This document shows positions 3,507 through 17,440 of a DNA stretch of 18,328 nucleotides, piece after piece. The stretch covers positions 1 to 18,328 of the forward strand of contig PRDI01000125.1 of assembly GCA_003345595.1 (NCBI GenBank). The letters are read 5' to 3'. How positions within the stretch are numbered: the stretch's first letter is position 1; the number at the start of each line of letters is the position of its first letter. A program made the translations under genes and the position numbers. The notes under the pieces were generated by a model, which saw nothing but the letters and a program-made list of their open reading frames with translations, did no database searches and was not told the DNA's origin. The stretch is from Candidatus Thorarchaeota archaeon (lineage in GTDB: Archaea > Asgardarchaeota > Thorarchaeia > Thorarchaeales > Thorarchaeaceae).

Positions 3507-3516
3507 CAAAAGCTGC
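3485..3516. terminator. Inverted repeat between the convergent phoA and mttB-like genes
   Basis: CTTTTGTC (3491-3498) pairs with GACAAAAG (3505-3512), extended by GCAG/CTGC. It spans the 9-nt gap between the convergent stops. Confidence 0.4.
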
Positions 3517-4988
3517 TACACGGCCGGTATCGAGCCCGATGAAAGACCGCGATTCCTGAGAATCATGATCAGCGTAGAGTCCAACGACTCCTTGGACGCG
3601 TCGGGCAGCGGTTTTGACGAATGAGTCCTGAGAGTCTTCTCAACTCTCTCCCTTGCTCTGGCATAGGCATCGCTTGACCCGGCGTCCTTCCAAGTGTGTA
3701 CCGGTTGCCTACTTGTGATTTCAGATGGAAAGAACTGACAATGCCGAAAACTGGTGAGTGTATGGTCTGCCGAGAGGAATTCGCCACTAGGTCCTACCGA
3801 ATCTAGAAGACTCACGATGCTCTCCGTGTTCTCAGACTCAACGCCACGCATCAGCCTTCTTGCCATGCCGCATATCTCGTTGTCAATTACCAGTTTCTCG
3901 AGTGACTGGCAGTTCTCGAAAGCTAGCATGCCCGGACCTGATACTACATTGATTCTTGCCAACGATGCTAGCATCAGGCCAATAGCAGATTCGAAACCAC
4001 TCTGTGCATCTGGTAGCTTCGAATCGCTCAGACCCAAGTAGGCGTGAGTTGGAATTCCGTAGTACTTGCCAATCTGAGAAGCGGCACACTCAGCCATTGC
4101 TGTCTCTATTGCGCCGAGGCAGATTACGCCCTGTTTCATGTCGAAGAGCGCTAGTGATCCACCATAGACAACAGGCGTTCCGGGATTCGCCGTTTCTGCG
4201 ATCACGATGCCAGCGAGTATCTCTGCGTTTGATTGAACAAGAGTGCCAAAGATGGTTACTGGACCTGTCGCACCCATCATCGGAGCAGGGACTATCTCTG
4301 CAGGAATCGAACTGGTAGCACAGTCAATCAGATTCTGAGAGCTCACATCATTCCATGTGAGTGGAGATGTCGGGCAGCAGTCGAAAATGGCGTGGGGCGA
4401 CCGGACTAGTTCTTTTGAGCCTCCCGCTACGGCTTCCAGCATTAGTTTCATGTCGGCTATGCCTTCTTTCGTGAAAGCTCCCGTGACTATCGGTTTGTCT
4501 GAGTGCTTCAGAACCAAATAGAGACGAAACAGATCTGAGATTGACTCCGGCACATCGGATGTGATTACGGCCGTACTGACGGCATCCATGTAGGGAAGTG
4601 CATCCGCAAGTTCAATCAGTCTGACGAGGTCCCTTGATGTTCCTCGACGAATCTCGCCAGTTTCTGAGTCCAGGAAGTCAGAGGCCGAAGAGCCGGGATT
4701 GAATATGACTTCATTGCCTCCAACAGTGAGATAGCGATCTCGCTCACGAGTATAGAGTCTGAATGATTTTGGCACCTTTGAGAGACAAGATTCCACAAGG
4801 TCAGTTGGGAACCGGACTCGGTTTGACTCAATGCCACATCCTGCATTCTCCAATAGCTGGAGCGCTGCACTGTTCTTCACAGCCAGTCCTGTCTTCTCAA
4901 GCAGGTGAAGCGACGCCGAATGTATGCTTTCGATGTCATTCTGAGAAAGAAGTGTAAACTCTCCCATAGTGGACGCCTCAGGATCCAT
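3516..4988 (-). CDS. Trimethylamine methyltransferase (MttB) superfamily protein, non-pyrrolysine type
   Basis: 490 aa with MttB features: IHSASLHLLEKTG, SPL, MGATGPVT..GTL...NAE.LAG, PGTPVVYG, SDSKLPDAQSGFES, GMLAF....SLEKLVIDNEI, GPSGEFL..DHT. No in-frame UAG; Leu sits at the Pyl-equivalent position before SDSK. Confidence 0.9.
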   Translation of the reverse strand: MDPEASTMGEFTLLSQNDIESIHSASLHLLEKTGLAVKNSAALQLLENAGCGIESNRVRFPTDLVESCLSKVPKSFRLYTRERDRYLTVGGNEVIFNPGSSASDFLDSETGEIRRGTSRDLVRLIELADALPYMDAVSTAVITSDVPESISDLFRLYLVLKHSDKPIVTGAFTKEGIADMKLMLEAVAGGSKELVRSPHAIFDCCPTSPLTWNDVSSQNLIDCATSSIPAEIVPAPMMGATGPVTIFGTLVQSNAEILAGIVIAETANPGTPVVYGGSLALFDMKQGVICLGAIETAMAECAASQIGKYYGIPTHAYLGLSDSKLPDAQSGFESAIGLMLASLARINVVSGPGMLAFENCQSLEKLVIDNEICGMARRLMRGVESENTESIVSLLDSVGPSGEFLSADHTLTSFRHCQFFPSEITSRQPVHTWKDAGSSDAYARARERVEKTLRTHSSKPLPDASKESLDSTLIMILRNRGLSSGSIPAV

Positions 4989-6533: not shown

Positions 6534-9302
6534 ATGAAGGGAACCGTTGACATGACGACGGAAGAAACATCAAAGCAGAACAGCAGCGCCGGACAGACGG
6601 AAAGCAAAGTCCCGGCAGCGCTTGTTGTTGGTGGAGGCGTTGCAGGTATGCAGGCTGCACTTGACATCGCCTCTCAGGGCTTCAAGGTCTATCTCCTGGA
6701 ACAGTCACCATCCATTGGCGGCCGCATGGCAATGATCGACAAGACATTTCCTACTCTTGACTGCTCTGCATGCATACTCACGCCACGGCTCAGCGAAACC
6801 TCTCGCAACCCGAACATCGAGCTTCTCACCTATTCCGAAGTCAAGTCGATTACGGGTGAAGCTGGTGACTTCAGAGTCAGAATCCGAAGAAAGGCACGAT
6901 ACGTCAATGAGAAGAAATGTTCGGCATGCGCAGAATGTGTGCCTGTGTGTCCTGTAGAGGTCCCCAATGACTTTGACCAGGGCTTGGGTTTCAGGAAGGC
7001 GATTTACTCGCCGTTCCCACAGTCGACGCCCAACGCATATACGATTGACAAAAAGGGCGAGCCGCCTTGCAGGGCAACATGCCCCGCTCATGTGAATGCT
7101 CAGGGCTTTGTCACTCTCATGAAACATGGGAAGTACGACGAGGCGCTCGAGATTGTGAGAGATGCTATACCATTCCCAGGAGTACTCGGAAGGGTGTGTA
7201 TCAGCTTCTGTGAGGCTGAGTGCGAAAGGGGAACGCTTGACGACAGTATGAGCATCAGAAACCTGCATAGGTTCTTAGCAGATTACGAGCGCGAAAACAA
7301 TCTGGCTAAGCCAGTCGTTCCAAAGATTGACAAGAAGGAGAGAGTGGCAGTCGTCGGAGCAGGACCTGCGGGTATAAGCTGTGCCTACCAGCTTGCAAGA
7401 AAGGGTTACCCTGTGACAGTCTTCGAGGCCAAGCCCGAAGCCGGTGGTCTTCTGAGGTATGCCATTCCCGAGTATCGGCTCCCTCGCAACATCCTAGATG
7501 AAGAAATCCAACGTGTCGTTGATCTAGGAGTGAAGATTAAGGTGAACACTCCCGTCAAGTCGGTGAGGGATCTGCTTGCCAAGGGCTTCAAGGCCGTGTT
7601 TGTGGGTACGGGTGCATCTGTAAGCAACAAGATTGGCCTTCCTGGAGAGGAAATTGTTGGAGTGATTCACTCCGTGGAATTCTTGGAGAAGGTCAACACA
7701 GGTCAAGACGTTAAGATCGGGGAGAAGGTTGCCGTGATTGGAGGAGGAGATGCGGCGATAGACGCAGCACGGGTCGCTGTCCGGCTCGGTGCCTCGGATG
7801 TCACTGTCATCTACCGGCGATCAAACATTGAGATACCTGCTATCCCGAGTGAGGTCGAAGACGCGAAGAGTGAGGGCGTCAAGTTCATGATGTTGACGAA
7901 TCCAATCGAAATTCTGTCCCCTAGAGGCGTTCTCACCGGCATCAGGTGCGTCCGAATGAGACTCGGTGAGCCCGATCACTCGGGCAGAAGTCGGCCCGTA
8001 CCTATAGTCGGGTCCGAGTTCACAATGGCCGTTAACACGCTGATTCTCGGTGTTGGGCAGAGTGCGAATCCTCGGGGAGTCCAGACTGAGTGTGACTGCA
8101 CGGAGTATGCTACAGTAAAAGCTGATCCGGTGACCCTGCAGACCAGCATACCTGGAGTCTTCGCAGGAGGCGATGTTGTCTTAGGTCCTCTCACAGTGGT
8201 GAAAGCGGTCGGGCAGGGCCGACAGGCTGCTGATTCGATAGACATGTACCTGAGAGGAATCCCCTTTGGACACAGTCCACCCGAGAGGCACCGCGTTCAG
8301 TCGTACGAGGTTGACAAGAGAAGAGTCTTGCCTGCAAAGCGTGCAATCATGGCAAAGCAGGGAATTCGGAGCCGCAAGTCAGACTTCTCTGAAGTTGAGC
8401 TTGGATTCAGTGAGGAAACTGCACACTCCGAGGCGGAACGATGCCTGGGATGCGCCGTGTGTTGTGACTGCAACCAGTGCGTGAAGGCTTGCCAGCGCGG
8501 AGCTATTGACCAATCGATGACGGATGAGTCCGCCGAGCTCTCAGTCGGAGCTATCATTATCGCTACTGGCTATCGACTGTTCGACATCACCGCTTATCCA
8601 CAGCTTGGATATGGAAGATACTCGAATGTTATTCACGCTATGGAGTATGAGCGACTGATCAATGCGTCCGGACCGACGAAAGGTCACCTCATACGACTAA
8701 GTGATGGCAGGATCCCGGAGTCCATGGGATTCATTCAGTGCGTTGGGGCGAGAGATGTGAGCAAGGATGTTCCATATTGCAGCCGGGTCTGTTGCATGTA
8801 CGCAATCAAGAACGCGGTCATGGCGAGAGAACATAACCCCGATGCAGATGTCACAATCTACTATGCGGACATAAGGGCCTTCGGGAAAGGATTCGAACAA
8901 TTCTATGATATGGCTCAGACAAGGTTTGGTGTGAAGTTCGTTAGAGGCCGAGTAGCCGAGGTCGCAGAGGACAAGCACACACACAATCTTACCGTCAGAT
9001 ACGAAGACACGGAAACAGGCACGCTTCACGATGTGGAACATGAAATGATAGTCATCAGTCCGGGTATCCAGCCACCCGAAGGGCTTGATGATCTTGCTGT
9101 CGAACTAGGCATGGACCTAGCCGCTGATGGGTATGTTGATGTGGCTGACCAGATCGTGACTCCGGTGGACACAAAGATCGCTGGCGTGTTCGTGTGCGGC
9201 TGCGCAGATGCGCCCAAGGATATTCCCGACTCTGTGTCAGCCGGGAGTGCCGCAGCCATGAGAGCAACCATTATTCTGAACAACATGAGGAAGAAAGTCT
9301 AG
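6534..9302 (+). CDS. hdrA: HdrA-like flavoprotein with inserted GltD/NfnB-like NAD(P)H:flavin oxidoreductase module (HdrL-like); lacks the HdrA N-terminal and C-terminal Fe-S domains
   Basis: GGGVAG FAD motif, KTFPTLDCSAC, CxxCxxCxxxCP, QCVGAR..CSRVCC. Insert of about 460 aa (about 7050-8450) with PCRATCP, GRVC...CE..C, GAGPAG, GGLLRYAIPEYRLP, GGGDAAID, YRRS, GVFAGGD, EAERCLGC. Start may be 6552. Confidence 0.9.
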   Translation: MKGTVDMTTEETSKQNSSAGQTESKVPAALVVGGGVAGMQAALDIASQGFKVYLLEQSPSIGGRMAMIDKTFPTLDCSACILTPRLSETSRNPNIELLTYSEVKSITGEAGDFRVRIRRKARYVNEKKCSACAECVPVCPVEVPNDFDQGLGFRKAIYSPFPQSTPNAYTIDKKGEPPCRATCPAHVNAQGFVTLMKHGKYDEALEIVRDAIPFPGVLGRVCISFCEAECERGTLDDSMSIRNLHRFLADYERENNLAKPVVPKIDKKERVAVVGAGPAGISCAYQLARKGYPVTVFEAKPEAGGLLRYAIPEYRLPRNILDEEIQRVVDLGVKIKVNTPVKSVRDLLAKGFKAVFVGTGASVSNKIGLPGEEIVGVIHSVEFLEKVNTGQDVKIGEKVAVIGGGDAAIDAARVAVRLGASDVTVIYRRSNIEIPAIPSEVEDAKSEGVKFMMLTNPIEILSPRGVLTGIRCVRMRLGEPDHSGRSRPVPIVGSEFTMAVNTLILGVGQSANPRGVQTECDCTEYATVKADPVTLQTSIPGVFAGGDVVLGPLTVVKAVGQGRQAADSIDMYLRGIPFGHSPPERHRVQSYEVDKRRVLPAKRAIMAKQGIRSRKSDFSEVELGFSEETAHSEAERCLGCAVCCDCNQCVKACQRGAIDQSMTDESAELSVGAIIIATGYRLFDITAYPQLGYGRYSNVIHAMEYERLINASGPTKGHLIRLSDGRIPESMGFIQCVGARDVSKDVPYCSRVCCMYAIKNAVMAREHNPDADVTIYYADIRAFGKGFEQFYDMAQTRFGVKFVRGRVAEVAEDKHTHNLTVRYEDTETGTLHDVEHEMIVISPGIQPPEGLDDLAVELGMDLAADGYVDVADQIVTPVDTKIAGVFVCGCADAPKDIPDSVSAGSAAAMRATIILNNMRKKV

Positions 9303-11000: not shown

Positions 11001-12383
11001 ATGCCAGCAGCAGCAAAGCCCCAATCGAGCCGGAAAGTCGCCGCGAGGTCAAGTCGAACCGCTGCCAAGCCTAAACCAGCTGCTAAGCAGGTGGCACAAG
11101 CTGCCCTTGTGGTCGGCGGTGGTGTGGCAGGTATGCAGGCATCGTTGGACCTGGCCAACCAAGGGTTCAAGGTATACTTGGTTGAGAAGTCACCTTCTAT
11201 TGGCGGCCGGATGGCAATGCTTGACAAGACATTCCCGACACTTGACTGCTCTGCTTGTATTCTCACACCAAGACTGAGCGAAGTAGCTCGTCATCCCAAC
11301 ATCAAACTATTGACATACACGGATCTGGAGGGTGTTATCGGGAAGGTCGGAAACTTCAAGGTCCGTGTCATAAAGCGGGCCAGGTACGTGAAAGAGGAGT
11401 TGTGTGCCGGATGTGGTGCCTGCGCCAAGGAATGCCCGGTTGAAGTCCCAAACGAGTTTGATCAAGGTCTCGGGTTCAGGAAAGCGATCTATGTCGGGTT
11501 TCCTCAGTCAACGCCAAGCACCTACACGATTGACATGGAATCATGCATCAAATGCAAGCGTTGTGAGAGAGCCTGCGAGCGCAAGGCCATAGACCTCGAG
11601 ATGGAAGACGAACGGGTTGAGTTCGATGTTGGCGCGATTATTATCGCGACGGGGTATCGTCTGTTTGATGTGAGAAGGTACTACCGTCTGGGTTACGGAC
11701 GGCTTCCTGACGTCATCAACGCTATGGAGTACGAGCGATTAATCAATGCGGCAGGACCCACACAAGGGCACCTCATCCGCCTAAGTGATGGCAAGACTCC
11801 GCAATCGATTGGTTTCGTGCAGTGTGTTGGTGCCAGAGATGTGAACAAGGGTGTCCCATATTGCAGCAGAGTATGTTGCATGTATGGGATCAAGAACGCA
11901 GTCATGGCCAAAGAACACAATCCCTCTACCGATGTGACCATTTACTATGCGGATATCCGTGCCTTTGGGAAGGGCTTTGAGGAGTTCTACGAAATGGCCC
12001 GCACTCGCTTCGGTGTCAAATTCCTGAGAGGGCGAGCTGCAGAGATAATCGAGGATGTCAGGACCGGCAAACTGCATCTCAGAGCAGAGGATACTGAGAC
12101 TGCTCAGCCGCAGGAGTTTGAACATGACATGGTTGTGATTTGTCCCGGGATTCAGCCTCCTGACGACTTGGACAAGATTGCCGAGAAGCTGGGTGTGGCG
12201 ATGAGTAATGACGGCTACGTCGATGTCGTGCACCGTTACTTCGGCCCTGTCGACACAAAGATGCCAGGGATCTTCGTGTGTGGTTGCGCAGACGGACCCA
12301 AGGATATCCCTGACTCGGTAACAGCAGGAAGTGCAGCAGCGATGAAGGCATCTATTATTCTTGCGAAGGGGGGTGCCGCATGA
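11001..12383 (+). CDS. hdrA: HdrA core subunit (FAD/TrxR-like domain plus inserted 2[4Fe-4S] ferredoxin), lacking the N- and C-terminal domains
   Basis: GGGVAG, KTFPTLDCSAC, CAGCGACAKECP, CIKCKRCERAC, MEYER, QCVGAR..CSRVCCMYGIK, GPKDIPDS. Ends before any C-terminal ferredoxin. Confidence 0.92.
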   Translation: MPAAAKPQSSRKVAARSSRTAAKPKPAAKQVAQAALVVGGGVAGMQASLDLANQGFKVYLVEKSPSIGGRMAMLDKTFPTLDCSACILTPRLSEVARHPNIKLLTYTDLEGVIGKVGNFKVRVIKRARYVKEELCAGCGACAKECPVEVPNEFDQGLGFRKAIYVGFPQSTPSTYTIDMESCIKCKRCERACERKAIDLEMEDERVEFDVGAIIIATGYRLFDVRRYYRLGYGRLPDVINAMEYERLINAAGPTQGHLIRLSDGKTPQSIGFVQCVGARDVNKGVPYCSRVCCMYGIKNAVMAKEHNPSTDVTIYYADIRAFGKGFEEFYEMARTRFGVKFLRGRAAEIIEDVRTGKLHLRAEDTETAQPQEFEHDMVVICPGIQPPDDLDKIAEKLGVAMSNDGYVDVVHRYFGPVDTKMPGIFVCGCADGPKDIPDSVTAGSAAAMKASIILAKGGAA

Positions 12384-14131
12384 TGACCGAGAAAGCAGAG
12401 CCGAGAATTGGAGTCTTCGTTTGCCATTGTGGTCACAACATTGCTGGAGTTGTCGACGTGGCAAAGGTCGTTGAGTCGGCAAAGTCGCTGCCCCATGTGG
12501 TCCTTTCGACAGACCACATGTTCATGTGCTCAGACGCAGGTCAGCAGTTGATTAAGGATAGAATCAAAGAGCAGAAGCTGAACCGTGTTGTGGTGGCGAG
12601 CTGTTCACCCCGAATGCATGAACCGACATTCCGTCGGGTCGTGGAGGATGCAGGTCTAAACCGTTATCTCTTTGATCAGGTAAACATACGGGAGCATGTT
12701 TCATGGTGCCACATGCGTCAGCCAAAGGAGGCTACTGACAAAGCCATTGACCTTGTCAGAATGTCTGTGGCCCGAGCAGCAGAGCTTGAGAGTCTGCCCA
12801 TAAAGTCGGTCAGTGTTACTCCGCGGACACTTGTTGTCGGTGGAGGCATTGCTGGGCTGAGGGCGTCCCTTGACATTGCAGACAGAGGTTTCGAGGCTGT
12901 CTTGGTAGAAAGGATGCCCGAACTCGGAGGCCATGTGAGGAAGTGGACACACCTCTTCCCGGCAGATGAGTCAGGAGAGCAGATAATTGCGCCGCTTGTT
13001 CGACAGGCTGAGCATCACAAGCTTGTCAGAGTCATGAAGGACAGTGAAGTCGTTGAGTTCGGTGGATACATTGGCAACTTCACTGCGAAGATCAAGAACC
13101 ACAAGACTGGTATGGTCAAGGAAGTCGATGTTGGTACTGTGATTGTGGCGACCGGTTTCGAGCCATTCAGGCCATTCGGATATTACGAATATGGTCAACA
13201 CCCTGACATAATCACGCTTGCAGAGCTTCAAGAGATGACGCCTAGGGCGGACCTAATCCGACCCAGCGACGGGAAGAAAGTCAAGAAGCTTGCATTCATT
13301 GGTTGTGTCGGATCTCGAGAGGCGGGCAAACTGGGCCACGAACATTGTTCTCGGCATTGCTGTTCGGCTGTTGCGAAAGCGGCGGCAGACCTGAGAGACA
13401 GGGTCGACGAAGTCGTAATAATGTACCAAGACATCAGGACCTATGGAAGGGGCCACGAAGAGCTGCATCGGCTCGCGAGGTCGAAGCTGGTCATCTACAG
13501 CAAGTTTCCCAAGGAGAAGAAACCGGTTGTGCAGATTGCTAACGGCAGGATAAGGATCACATGGTATGATGTACTGTCAGGTGACAATCTGGAGTACGAG
13601 CCGGACCTGCTAGTGCTGGCCTCAGCGATGATACCTCCTGCGGATGTTGCTGAGACTTCAAAGATGTTCAGTCTCACGAGGAGTGCAGACGGCTTCTTCA
13701 ACCCAGAGCACATCAAGCTTGCACCTTTGACCACACACACCGCTGGAGTCATGATTGCAGGAGCGGCCCAGGCGGCAAAGAACGCATCTGAGTCTGTTGT
13801 CGATGCCAGCGGCGCGGCAGCCAAGGCTGTCGGGCTAATGGCAAGAGGAAACGTGGAGATCGAGTCTACGGTTTCACATGTGATTCCGGAGCTGTGCTCA
13901 TCATGTCACACGTGTGTGACTGCCTGCCCGTATGGAGCAATCGCAATGGACACGAAGAAGAGCCCACCAGTGGCCTTGGTGACAGAGGCCAAGTGCAAGG
14001 GCTGCGGCACATGCGCGGCATCATGCCCGAGTAGTGCGATTATCATGTACCATTCCACGGACGAACAGATCCTGACAATGGTGGAGGCATATCTCTGTCC
14101 CTCGACTCAGACTACGGGAGGTGTCGCTTGA
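12380..14131 (+). CDS. hdrA: HdrA partner subunit (N-terminal Fe-S domain, FAD domain without inserted ferredoxin, C-terminal 2[4Fe-4S])
   Basis: RIGVFVCHCG, FMCS, ASCSPRMHE, NIREH.SW.H, GGGIAG, GCVGSR..CSRHCC, CSSCHTCVTACP, CKGCGTCAASCP. Confidence 0.92.
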   Translation: MMTEKAEPRIGVFVCHCGHNIAGVVDVAKVVESAKSLPHVVLSTDHMFMCSDAGQQLIKDRIKEQKLNRVVVASCSPRMHEPTFRRVVEDAGLNRYLFDQVNIREHVSWCHMRQPKEATDKAIDLVRMSVARAAELESLPIKSVSVTPRTLVVGGGIAGLRASLDIADRGFEAVLVERMPELGGHVRKWTHLFPADESGEQIIAPLVRQAEHHKLVRVMKDSEVVEFGGYIGNFTAKIKNHKTGMVKEVDVGTVIVATGFEPFRPFGYYEYGQHPDIITLAELQEMTPRADLIRPSDGKKVKKLAFIGCVGSREAGKLGHEHCSRHCCSAVAKAAADLRDRVDEVVIMYQDIRTYGRGHEELHRLARSKLVIYSKFPKEKKPVVQIANGRIRITWYDVLSGDNLEYEPDLLVLASAMIPPADVAETSKMFSLTRSADGFFNPEHIKLAPLTTHTAGVMIAGAAQAAKNASESVVDASGAAAKAVGLMARGNVEIESTVSHVIPELCSSCHTCVTACPYGAIAMDTKKSPPVALVTEAKCKGCGTCAASCPSSAIIMYHSTDEQILTMVEAYLCPSTQTTGGVA

Positions 14132-17054: not shown

Positions 17055-17070
17055 ACAGGAACGAATGAAC

Positions 17071-17223
17071 ATGACAGACGAAATACCTGAAGGCGTACTC
17101 AATCTCCTTGAGATGGTTGTACGCTGCTATGACTGCTGACTCTCTTGCGCCGCTCACATCGTCATTGTAGACGAAGAGGGACGCGAGATAGTCAGCAAGG
17201 AGCTCGTGACCAGCAGCGAATGA
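17071..17223 (+). CDS. vhuU: VhuU-type selenoprotein small hydrogenase subunit (Sec codon TGA 17137-17139; absent from ORF track)
   Basis: Manual translation: MTDEIPEGVLNLLEMVVRCYDC(U)LSCAAHIVIVDEEGREIVSKELVTSSE*. In-frame ATG also at 17065. Matches the L2 motif E...R.YDP[C/U]xxCxxH plus a cleavable tail, and directly follows L2-less vhuA. Confidence 0.93.
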
Positions 17224-17281
17224 AGGCGCGGTCGCAAAGATCTGAACTGCGCTCGACGACCCTGCGAGGGTTGCTGGTCAT
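17206..17281 (+). promoter_or_regulatory. Eukaryote-like SECIS element
   Basis: Helix I GUGACCAGCAGC (17206-17217) with GUUGCUGGUCAU (17270-17281). Core AUGAA (17220-17224) with CGAC (17254-17257), giving tandem G.A pairs. Helix II GGCGCGGU (17225-17232) with ACUGCGCU (17246-17253). Apical AAA at 17236-17238. Confidence 0.85.
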
Positions 17282-17440
17282 GCTCCTTCTTCCGCTTCTG
17301 CTTGGCAGCTAGCTACGCGTGTAGTCTGTCATTTCAAAGGTCGGTCCGTGGAAGCCGGGACTTCCGGGATTATGTCCAAGGCTAGGTGGCCGAATTCCTT
17401 GTTCGCATTCGGCAGGTGTCGAGTTGAGATACGGCAATCT

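Follow-up and report, generated by a model that had tools for sequence, protein, structure and literature searches.

A predicted eukaryote-like SECIS element with the vhuU stop codon in its core in a Thorarchaeon

The SECIS elements of Asgard archaea have been proposed to connect archaeal with eukaryotic encoding of selenocysteine (Sec). In describing lokiSECIS, Mariotti 2016 (PMC4989117) stated that the stop codon of Lokiarchaeota VhuU.1 overlaps the SECIS core, and reasoned in the Discussion that UGA stops near a lokiSECIS are not recodable, for structural and minimum-distance reasons. SBP2, which binds eukaryotic SECIS elements, is not known from Asgard archaea. Huang, Xiao & Zhang 2024 (PMC11227280) reported frequent overlaps between UGA stops and the AUGA motif, as well as the failure of SECISearch3 on Asgard elements. 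Their type I PatScan model runs from NNGAN through a 7-15 bp stem and an 8-20 nt loop to NGANN, and their study covers frhA and vhuU of Thorarchaeia, with G[U/G]AAA loops and a family-specific lower stem, [U/C]GG_C[C/U][A/G]. The overlap of stop codon and core, which an earlier, sequence-only reading of the locus studied here could not place in the literature, is thus already known and was published in 2016 and 2024. Novelty is possible only for a third helix, P3, and for a hairpin at the Sec codon. The article text of PMC4989117 describes a stem-loop only, with no third helix, and the article text of PMC11227280, where the terms are "internal loop and lower stem", makes no mention of one. In another class of RNA, a kink-turn (K-turn) with a third helix in its non-bulged strand has been defined on TPP riboswitches as the k-junction (PMC4005666; Wang, Daldrop, Huang & Lilley 2014).

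We analyzed a window of 18,328 nucleotides from a Candidatus Thorarchaeota archaeon, and coordinates given without a contig refer to this window. At the window's end lies an operon with the order hdrC-hdrB-hdrA'-hdrA''-mvhD-vhuG-vhuA, followed by a small vhuU ORF. Its translation reads MTDEIPEGVLNLLEMVVRCYDC-U-LSCAAH-IVIVDEEGREIVSKELVTSSE-stop, with the Sec context ...RCYDC-U-LSCAAH, and identifies VhuU as the small subunit bearing the Ni ligands of the C terminus (motif DC-U-LSC-AAH). Sec occupies the first ligand position of CxxCxxH, the C-terminal motif of [NiFe(Se)] hydrogenases. Homologues of vhuU with an in-frame TGA, one each, are present in more than 50 relatives, and the Sec position is TGA in all Sec-type homologues. 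The gene ends 27 codons past the Sec codon at a second TGA (17221-17223), which lies within AATGAA and places AUGA at 17220-17223; the frame beyond this stop is open for 57 further codons in the window. An alternative start codon is the ATG at 17065. The features of the locus are listed below, where MFE stands for the minimum free energy structure and cells are the pair-by-sequence entries of the alignment described further on.

17071..17223, + strand: vhuU coding sequence, 50 codons plus stop, from the translation, with the conserved Met of homologues aligned with the ATG at 17071
17137..17139, + strand: Sec codon UGA, in frame, taking the place of the first Cys in the CxxCxxH Ni-ligand motif
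17134..17197, + strand: hairpin within the coding region, with the Sec UGA in its 5' arm, assigned to the same recoding unit as the SECIS
17206..17214, + strand: 5' arm of P1 (helix I), codons Val-Thr-Ser, pairing with 17273-17281; present in the MFE, with compensatory changes at all 9 pairs
17220..17223, + strand: AUGA of the SECIS K-turn core, of which 17221-17223 is the vhuU stop; ATGA is invariant in 64/64 aligned sequences
17225..17253, + strand: P2 (SECIS helix II) and apical loop, 17225-17232 pairing with 17246-17253 (8 bp) around a 13-nt loop; found unaided by RNAalifold
17255..17257, + strand: 3' half of the core, G17255 and A17256 lying opposite A17223 and G17222 (sheared pairs) and C17257 pairing with G17218
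17259..17271, + strand: P3, the third helix, 17259-17263 pairing with 17267-17271, in the 3' (non-bulged) strand between core and P1; 95.7% paired
17273..17281, + strand: 3' arm of P1, non-coding; the helix is paired in 85% of cells

The hdrA and vhuD/mvhD genes of the window and the paralogues checked have no in-frame TGA, so the SECIS would serve vhuU alone. The regions 6534-9302 and 11001-14131 (+ strand) hold two adjacent HdrA-like genes, each carrying only a partial HdrA domain set, and, upstream, a longer third relative with a GltD/NfnB-like insert; an in-frame TGA is absent from all three. A second copy of vhuU, 90% identical, is found elsewhere in the genome (G000 contig C16, 15391-15611) and is followed by a stop-in-core SECIS junction of its own, whose helices have diverged. 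A weak PYLIS_3 match from the Rfam scan (3932-4030, minus strand, E = 0.054) was rejected as a recoding signal: its "UGA" is out of frame, and it sits inside an uninterrupted MttB-family ORF (3516-4988, minus strand) which, because it contains no in-frame stop, is a non-Pyl MttB homologue. The match reflects coding homology.

RNAfold on 17200-17290 gave an MFE of -37.8 kcal/mol (z = -2.6; 1/200 shuffles as stable) in which P1, P2 and P3 form a three-way junction. The sequence-only reading had drawn a two-helix SECIS with a helix I of 12 bp. The MFE and the covariation described below replace this with the junction, and P1 is 9-10 bp long (17206-17214/15 with 17272/73-17281), since the last two pairs of the longer helix (17216-17217 with 17270-17271) compete with the covarying P3. 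Helix II, put at 8-10 bp in that reading, comes to 8 bp plus an A·C mismatch (17224/17254), which adjoins tandem G·A pairs at the base of P2. Each of the features it named lies where it had placed it, including the 3' GA (17255-17256), the apical AAA (17236-17238) within the 13-nt loop CGCAAAGAUCUGA, and the 5' arm of helix I on the last codons of vhuU (17206-17214, Val-Thr-Ser). In the fold, GCGA-AUGA-A is single-stranded between the P1 5' arm and P2, C-GA-CG joins the 3' strand of P2 to P3, and P3 abuts the P1 3' arm. The element begins 15 nt upstream of the vhuU stop. Counted from the Sec codon's final base, the A of AUGA is 81 nt away, in agreement with the distance first read, and from AUGA to AAA the spacing is 12 nt at the locus and 11-12 nt in 59/66 relatives. 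A second pair of the C helix beside G17218-C17257 was considered and dropped, being unconserved and unpaired in 40/64 sequences.

Set beside lokiSECIS, the locus is alike in its gene, in an AUGA directly 5' of the stem, in an A-rich apical loop and in a purine-A after the stem. The dimensions differ: the 9-bp stem of lokiSECIS corresponds to 8 bp and an A·C mismatch at the locus, and its 11-nt loop starting AAAAA to a 13-nt loop starting CGCAAAG. The 3' core of lokiSECIS is GA in general but AA in VhuU, and here it is GA. A Loki-like relative in our collection (L030) has the full lokiSECIS dimensions, including the A-rich first five loop bases and a G as the last loop base, and matches the published description exactly, with P1 and P3 also present. 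The locus agrees with the type I description of Huang 2024 in its core, (AU)GA ... [G/A]A with a single free nucleotide flanking the upper stem on either side (AUGA-A at 17220-17224, C-GA at 17254-17256), in its stem of 7-15 bp with at most two mismatches and loop of 8-20 nt without a ministem (8 bp and 13 nt), and in its location between -30 and +600 nt of the gene's 3' end with an energy below -5 kcal/mol. Its loop has GCAAA, compared with the published G[U/G]AAA.

The Rfam scan of the whole window and of 17130-17330 (200 nt) at E <= 10 returned no SECIS family and, on the two hairpins, only chance miRNA-like matches. Of the eukaryotic assignment made in the first reading, the K-turn core motifs AUGA, AAA and GA stand, whereas its wording as the eukaryotic "consensus" does not hold for the family models. 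Its exclusion of the methanococcal GAA_A type agrees with the order AUGA...AAA...GA and the upper stem of 8 bp.

To place the element among its relatives, VhuU was searched against 61 related genomes and VhuA against the GTDB species collection, and 68 distinct Sec-type vhuU 3' ends were compared, from Thor-, Hermod-, Hel- and Atabeyarchaeia and from AT-rich relatives fitting the description of Lokiarchaeota. The identity of the core UGA with the in-frame vhuU stop, claimed from the single sequence, recurs widely, the stop being A+TGA in 66/68. The last codon is GGA (55), GAA (8), GCA (2) or GTA (1): the amino acid differs and the third base is always A. One exception (L045) has a premature TAA with the AUGA retained downstream, and the other (L048) has a TAA stop with the AUGA 21 nt beyond. 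The distance from Sec codon to stop takes two main values, 84 nt (55 sequences) and 96 nt (12 sequences).

Covariation was assessed on an unfitted MAFFT alignment of 64 sequences and 22 pairs, with controls in which the pairing partners were slid. Across the three helices 90.8% of cells are paired, compared with 26-47% in the slid controls, and 164 cells carry double changes, compared with 18-40, with compensatory changes in each helix. Conservation of the helices and of the stop/core overlap, which the first reading had proposed as a check, is borne out in the Asgard vhuU compared. P2 is 94.6% paired with double changes at all 8 pairs, the outer pairs of P3 exchange A-U, G-C and C-G and its loop in relatives is CGCAA/GCAA, and in an LVLGGG subgroup the P1 3' arm shifts in step with a Thr-to-Leu codon change. 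Given the plain MAFFT alignment, RNAalifold returned P2, P3 and a portion of P1, and the junction, P3 included, appears in the single-sequence MFEs of most relatives as it does in that of the window. Many G·U pairs assign the structure to the + strand RNA. All 64 sequences agree at ATGA, at the last two bases of GAC and at one A of the loop; the G of the 3' core is conserved in at least 90%, and G17218-C17257 is G-C in 64/64. An outer extension of P1 (AAGGAG 17197-17202 with CUCCUU 17283-17288) was left as "possible", its pairing of 81% against 44-62% in slid controls being raised in large part because the flanks are purine- and pyrimidine-rich.

The coding half of the element shows a corresponding pattern of codon use. 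The last Gly codon is GGA in 46/46 and the Val codon GTG in 42/44, and fourfold-degenerate sites of the P1 arm and core (GGA, GTG, ACY) are fixed or change only in ways that preserve pairing, while the remaining Gly and Val codons of vhuU vary freely. Synonymous sites in the P1 arm and core are constrained by the RNA. The suggestion that this dual coding is cheap fits the position of the P1 coding arm, past the His at which hydrogenase large subunits are cleaved; the mature VhuU of M. voltae has 26 aa (PMC9929600).

The coding-region hairpin at the Sec codon is strong, with an MFE of -37.4 kcal/mol (z = -6.3; 0/200 shuffles as stable). Nearly all Thorarchaeia vhuU yielded it independently, and a subgroup with a 4-codon insert retains it in a longer form. 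The pairs of the hairpin are formed in 87% of cells compared with 32-50% in slid controls, with double changes at 5 pairs, and a synonymous change 30 nt away compensates an Ala/Gly codon change. The hairpin is not apparent in vhuU from Loki-like relatives or from Hel- and Atabeyarchaeia. Its position resembles that of the eukaryotic Sec redefinition element (SRE).

The SECIS element goes with Sec. A split vhuU paralogue with Cys for Sec (...DCCLSC...) and Phe for the final His (L049; G015 contig C63, 34315-34452) ends T+TGA, and has neither the SECIS fold nor the coding hairpin, which makes it a natural control. Cys-type fused large subunits (L100-L102 and L106) end in TAG with no similar element after them. 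A scan of the genome with R1, a covariance model of the vhuU junction, recovered the two vhuU copies and otherwise a single match at E = 0.71 on contig C81, which was dismissed for having no AUGA core and no selenoprotein context. The genome encodes EFSec and SepSecS on one contig, both scoring above curated cut-offs, and its selD has an in-frame TGA. Searches of the genome with RF01852 and ARAGORN returned no tRNA-Sec, a result that does not imply absence in a metagenome-assembled genome (MAG) that is 83% complete.

The selD gene repeats the arrangement. Its TGA stop lies inside a GUGA/AUGA SECIS core (G000 contig C78, stop 2688; L112:2470-2555), and on comparison with 20 Thorarchaeia relatives (L113-L131 and L139) the overlap is present in 21/21 Thorarchaeia selD genes. 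This element is also a three-way junction, with a P1 of GAGACCG/CGGUCUC (codons I-E-T), an apical part of type II and a P3 capped by GCGA/GCAA; 93.8% of its cells are paired, compared with 31-43% in slid controls. The selD genes of Loki-like and other Asgard classes have a TAA or TAG stop immediately 5' of an (A/G)UGA core.

We conclude that the element is very probably the vhuU SECIS of this Thorarchaeon, an Asgard "eukaryote-like" type I element with a K-turn, predicted to serve Sec insertion at one UGA and to contain the UGA of termination. The analysis establishes the sequence, the fold with its conservation and covariation, the association with Sec and the presence of the machinery; its SECIS activity and the cause of termination at the second UGA we infer. 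The tandem sheared pairs G17222·A17256 and A17223·G17255 would form the kink-turn at the base of P2, with AAA 12 nt above, and P1, made of the last codons and the 3' UTR, and the side hairpin P3 would hold the three-way junction. When UGA 17137 is in the A site, the junction, which begins 66 nt downstream, should be intact and would lead to delivery of EFSec·Sec-tRNA, either directly or via a K-turn binder. By the time UGA 17221 is reached, the P1 5' arm and AUGA would be inside the ribosome, the SECIS would be gone and a release factor would terminate. The same codon would then be read in two ways, depending on whether the signal is folded, and the "self-insulating stop" of the first reading is a plausible consequence of this geometry. 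The frames past the stop, which run for 3 to 148 codons in relatives, are unconserved and therefore fit real termination at 17221.

It is a separate question whether the overlap does anything of its own. Correct termination does not need it, as L048 and selD in other Asgard classes show, and insulation may be a by-product of a SECIS packed beside a very short gene and not a selected function. That the overlap has no function of its own, the SECIS having to lie close to the Sec codon and being packed against the end of a gene that stops 27 codons later, while a minimum-distance rule makes any UGA so near terminate and thereby left UGA free to enter AUGA, has in our estimate slightly less than an even chance. 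The L048 arrangement (TAA, AUGA 21 nt downstream) and the TAA or TAG right before (A/G)UGA in selD of Loki-like and other classes favor this explanation, as does the attribution of nearby UGA stops to a minimum-distance requirement by Mariotti 2016 (PMC4989117). It accounts less well for the occurrence of the overlap in 66/68 vhuU across several Asgard classes and in 21/21 Thorarchaeia selD, a persistence beyond neutral expectation, although shared ancestry accounts for much of it.

Two further explanations bear on the element itself. We consider it very unlikely that the fold is mainly an mRNA stabilizer or terminator of the hdr-vhu operon in which AUGA, GA and AAA are incidental. Its position at the operon end ahead of a pyrimidine/T-rich tract and the weak additional AAGGAG/CUCCUU pairing at the flanks would suit such a role, but invariant motifs stand beside covarying helices, no such element follows Cys-type homologues, the same core appears again after selD, and the R1 scan of the genome placed the junction at the two vhuU copies only. 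Recoding of the terminal UGA itself, read as Sec at a useful rate to give a C-terminally extended VhuU, seems to us slightly more improbable still. The codon and the machinery are the same and no further stop is met for 57 codons; against this, the extensions in relatives (3 to 148 codons) show no conservation, the ribosome must unfold the SECIS to get to the terminal UGA, and the tail past the His is removed anyway, as in the 26-aa mature VhuU of M. voltae (PMC9929600).

With the element read as a type I SECIS that contains the vhuU stop, the locus contributes a clean, well-conserved example and comparative numbers for a published point, and its third helix and Sec-codon hairpin are possibly useful to specialists on Asgard SECIS. 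A more far-reaching proposal, which we regard as possible but rather doubtful, is that the published Asgard SECIS models are partial. In Thorarchaeia the working unit would then be a k-junction-type three-way junction with a GNRA-capped P3 common to vhuU and selD, joined in vhuU by an SRE-like hairpin at the Sec codon; these parts, and not the overlap, would select the UGA that is read as Sec, and P3 would dock a factor replacing SBP2.

Eukaryotic SECIS elements (RF00031, SECIS_1) share with the locus AUGA, an unpaired AA(A) and GA, the logic of the K-turn quartet and a lower helix. The SECISearch pattern for eukaryotic SECIS sets the As about 10-13 nt from the core, a range that includes the 12 nt seen here. 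Eukaryotic elements lie wholly in the 3' UTR, whereas the 5' half of this one is coding (17206-17223), and a third helix is not among their traits, whereas the locus folds as a three-way junction. The euryarchaeal GAA_A SECIS of Methanococcus and Methanopyrus does the same job for the same gene family at the gene's 3' end, but it is built from a GAA / A bulge between two G/C-rich stems with a short upper stem, in contrast to AUGA_GA and 8 bp. The k-junction comes from riboswitches and not from recoding signals, yet at the level of secondary structure its topology is that of the locus, with P2 as the NC helix, P1 as the C helix, P3 as the third helix and the invariant G17218-C17257 as the counterpart of its closing pair.
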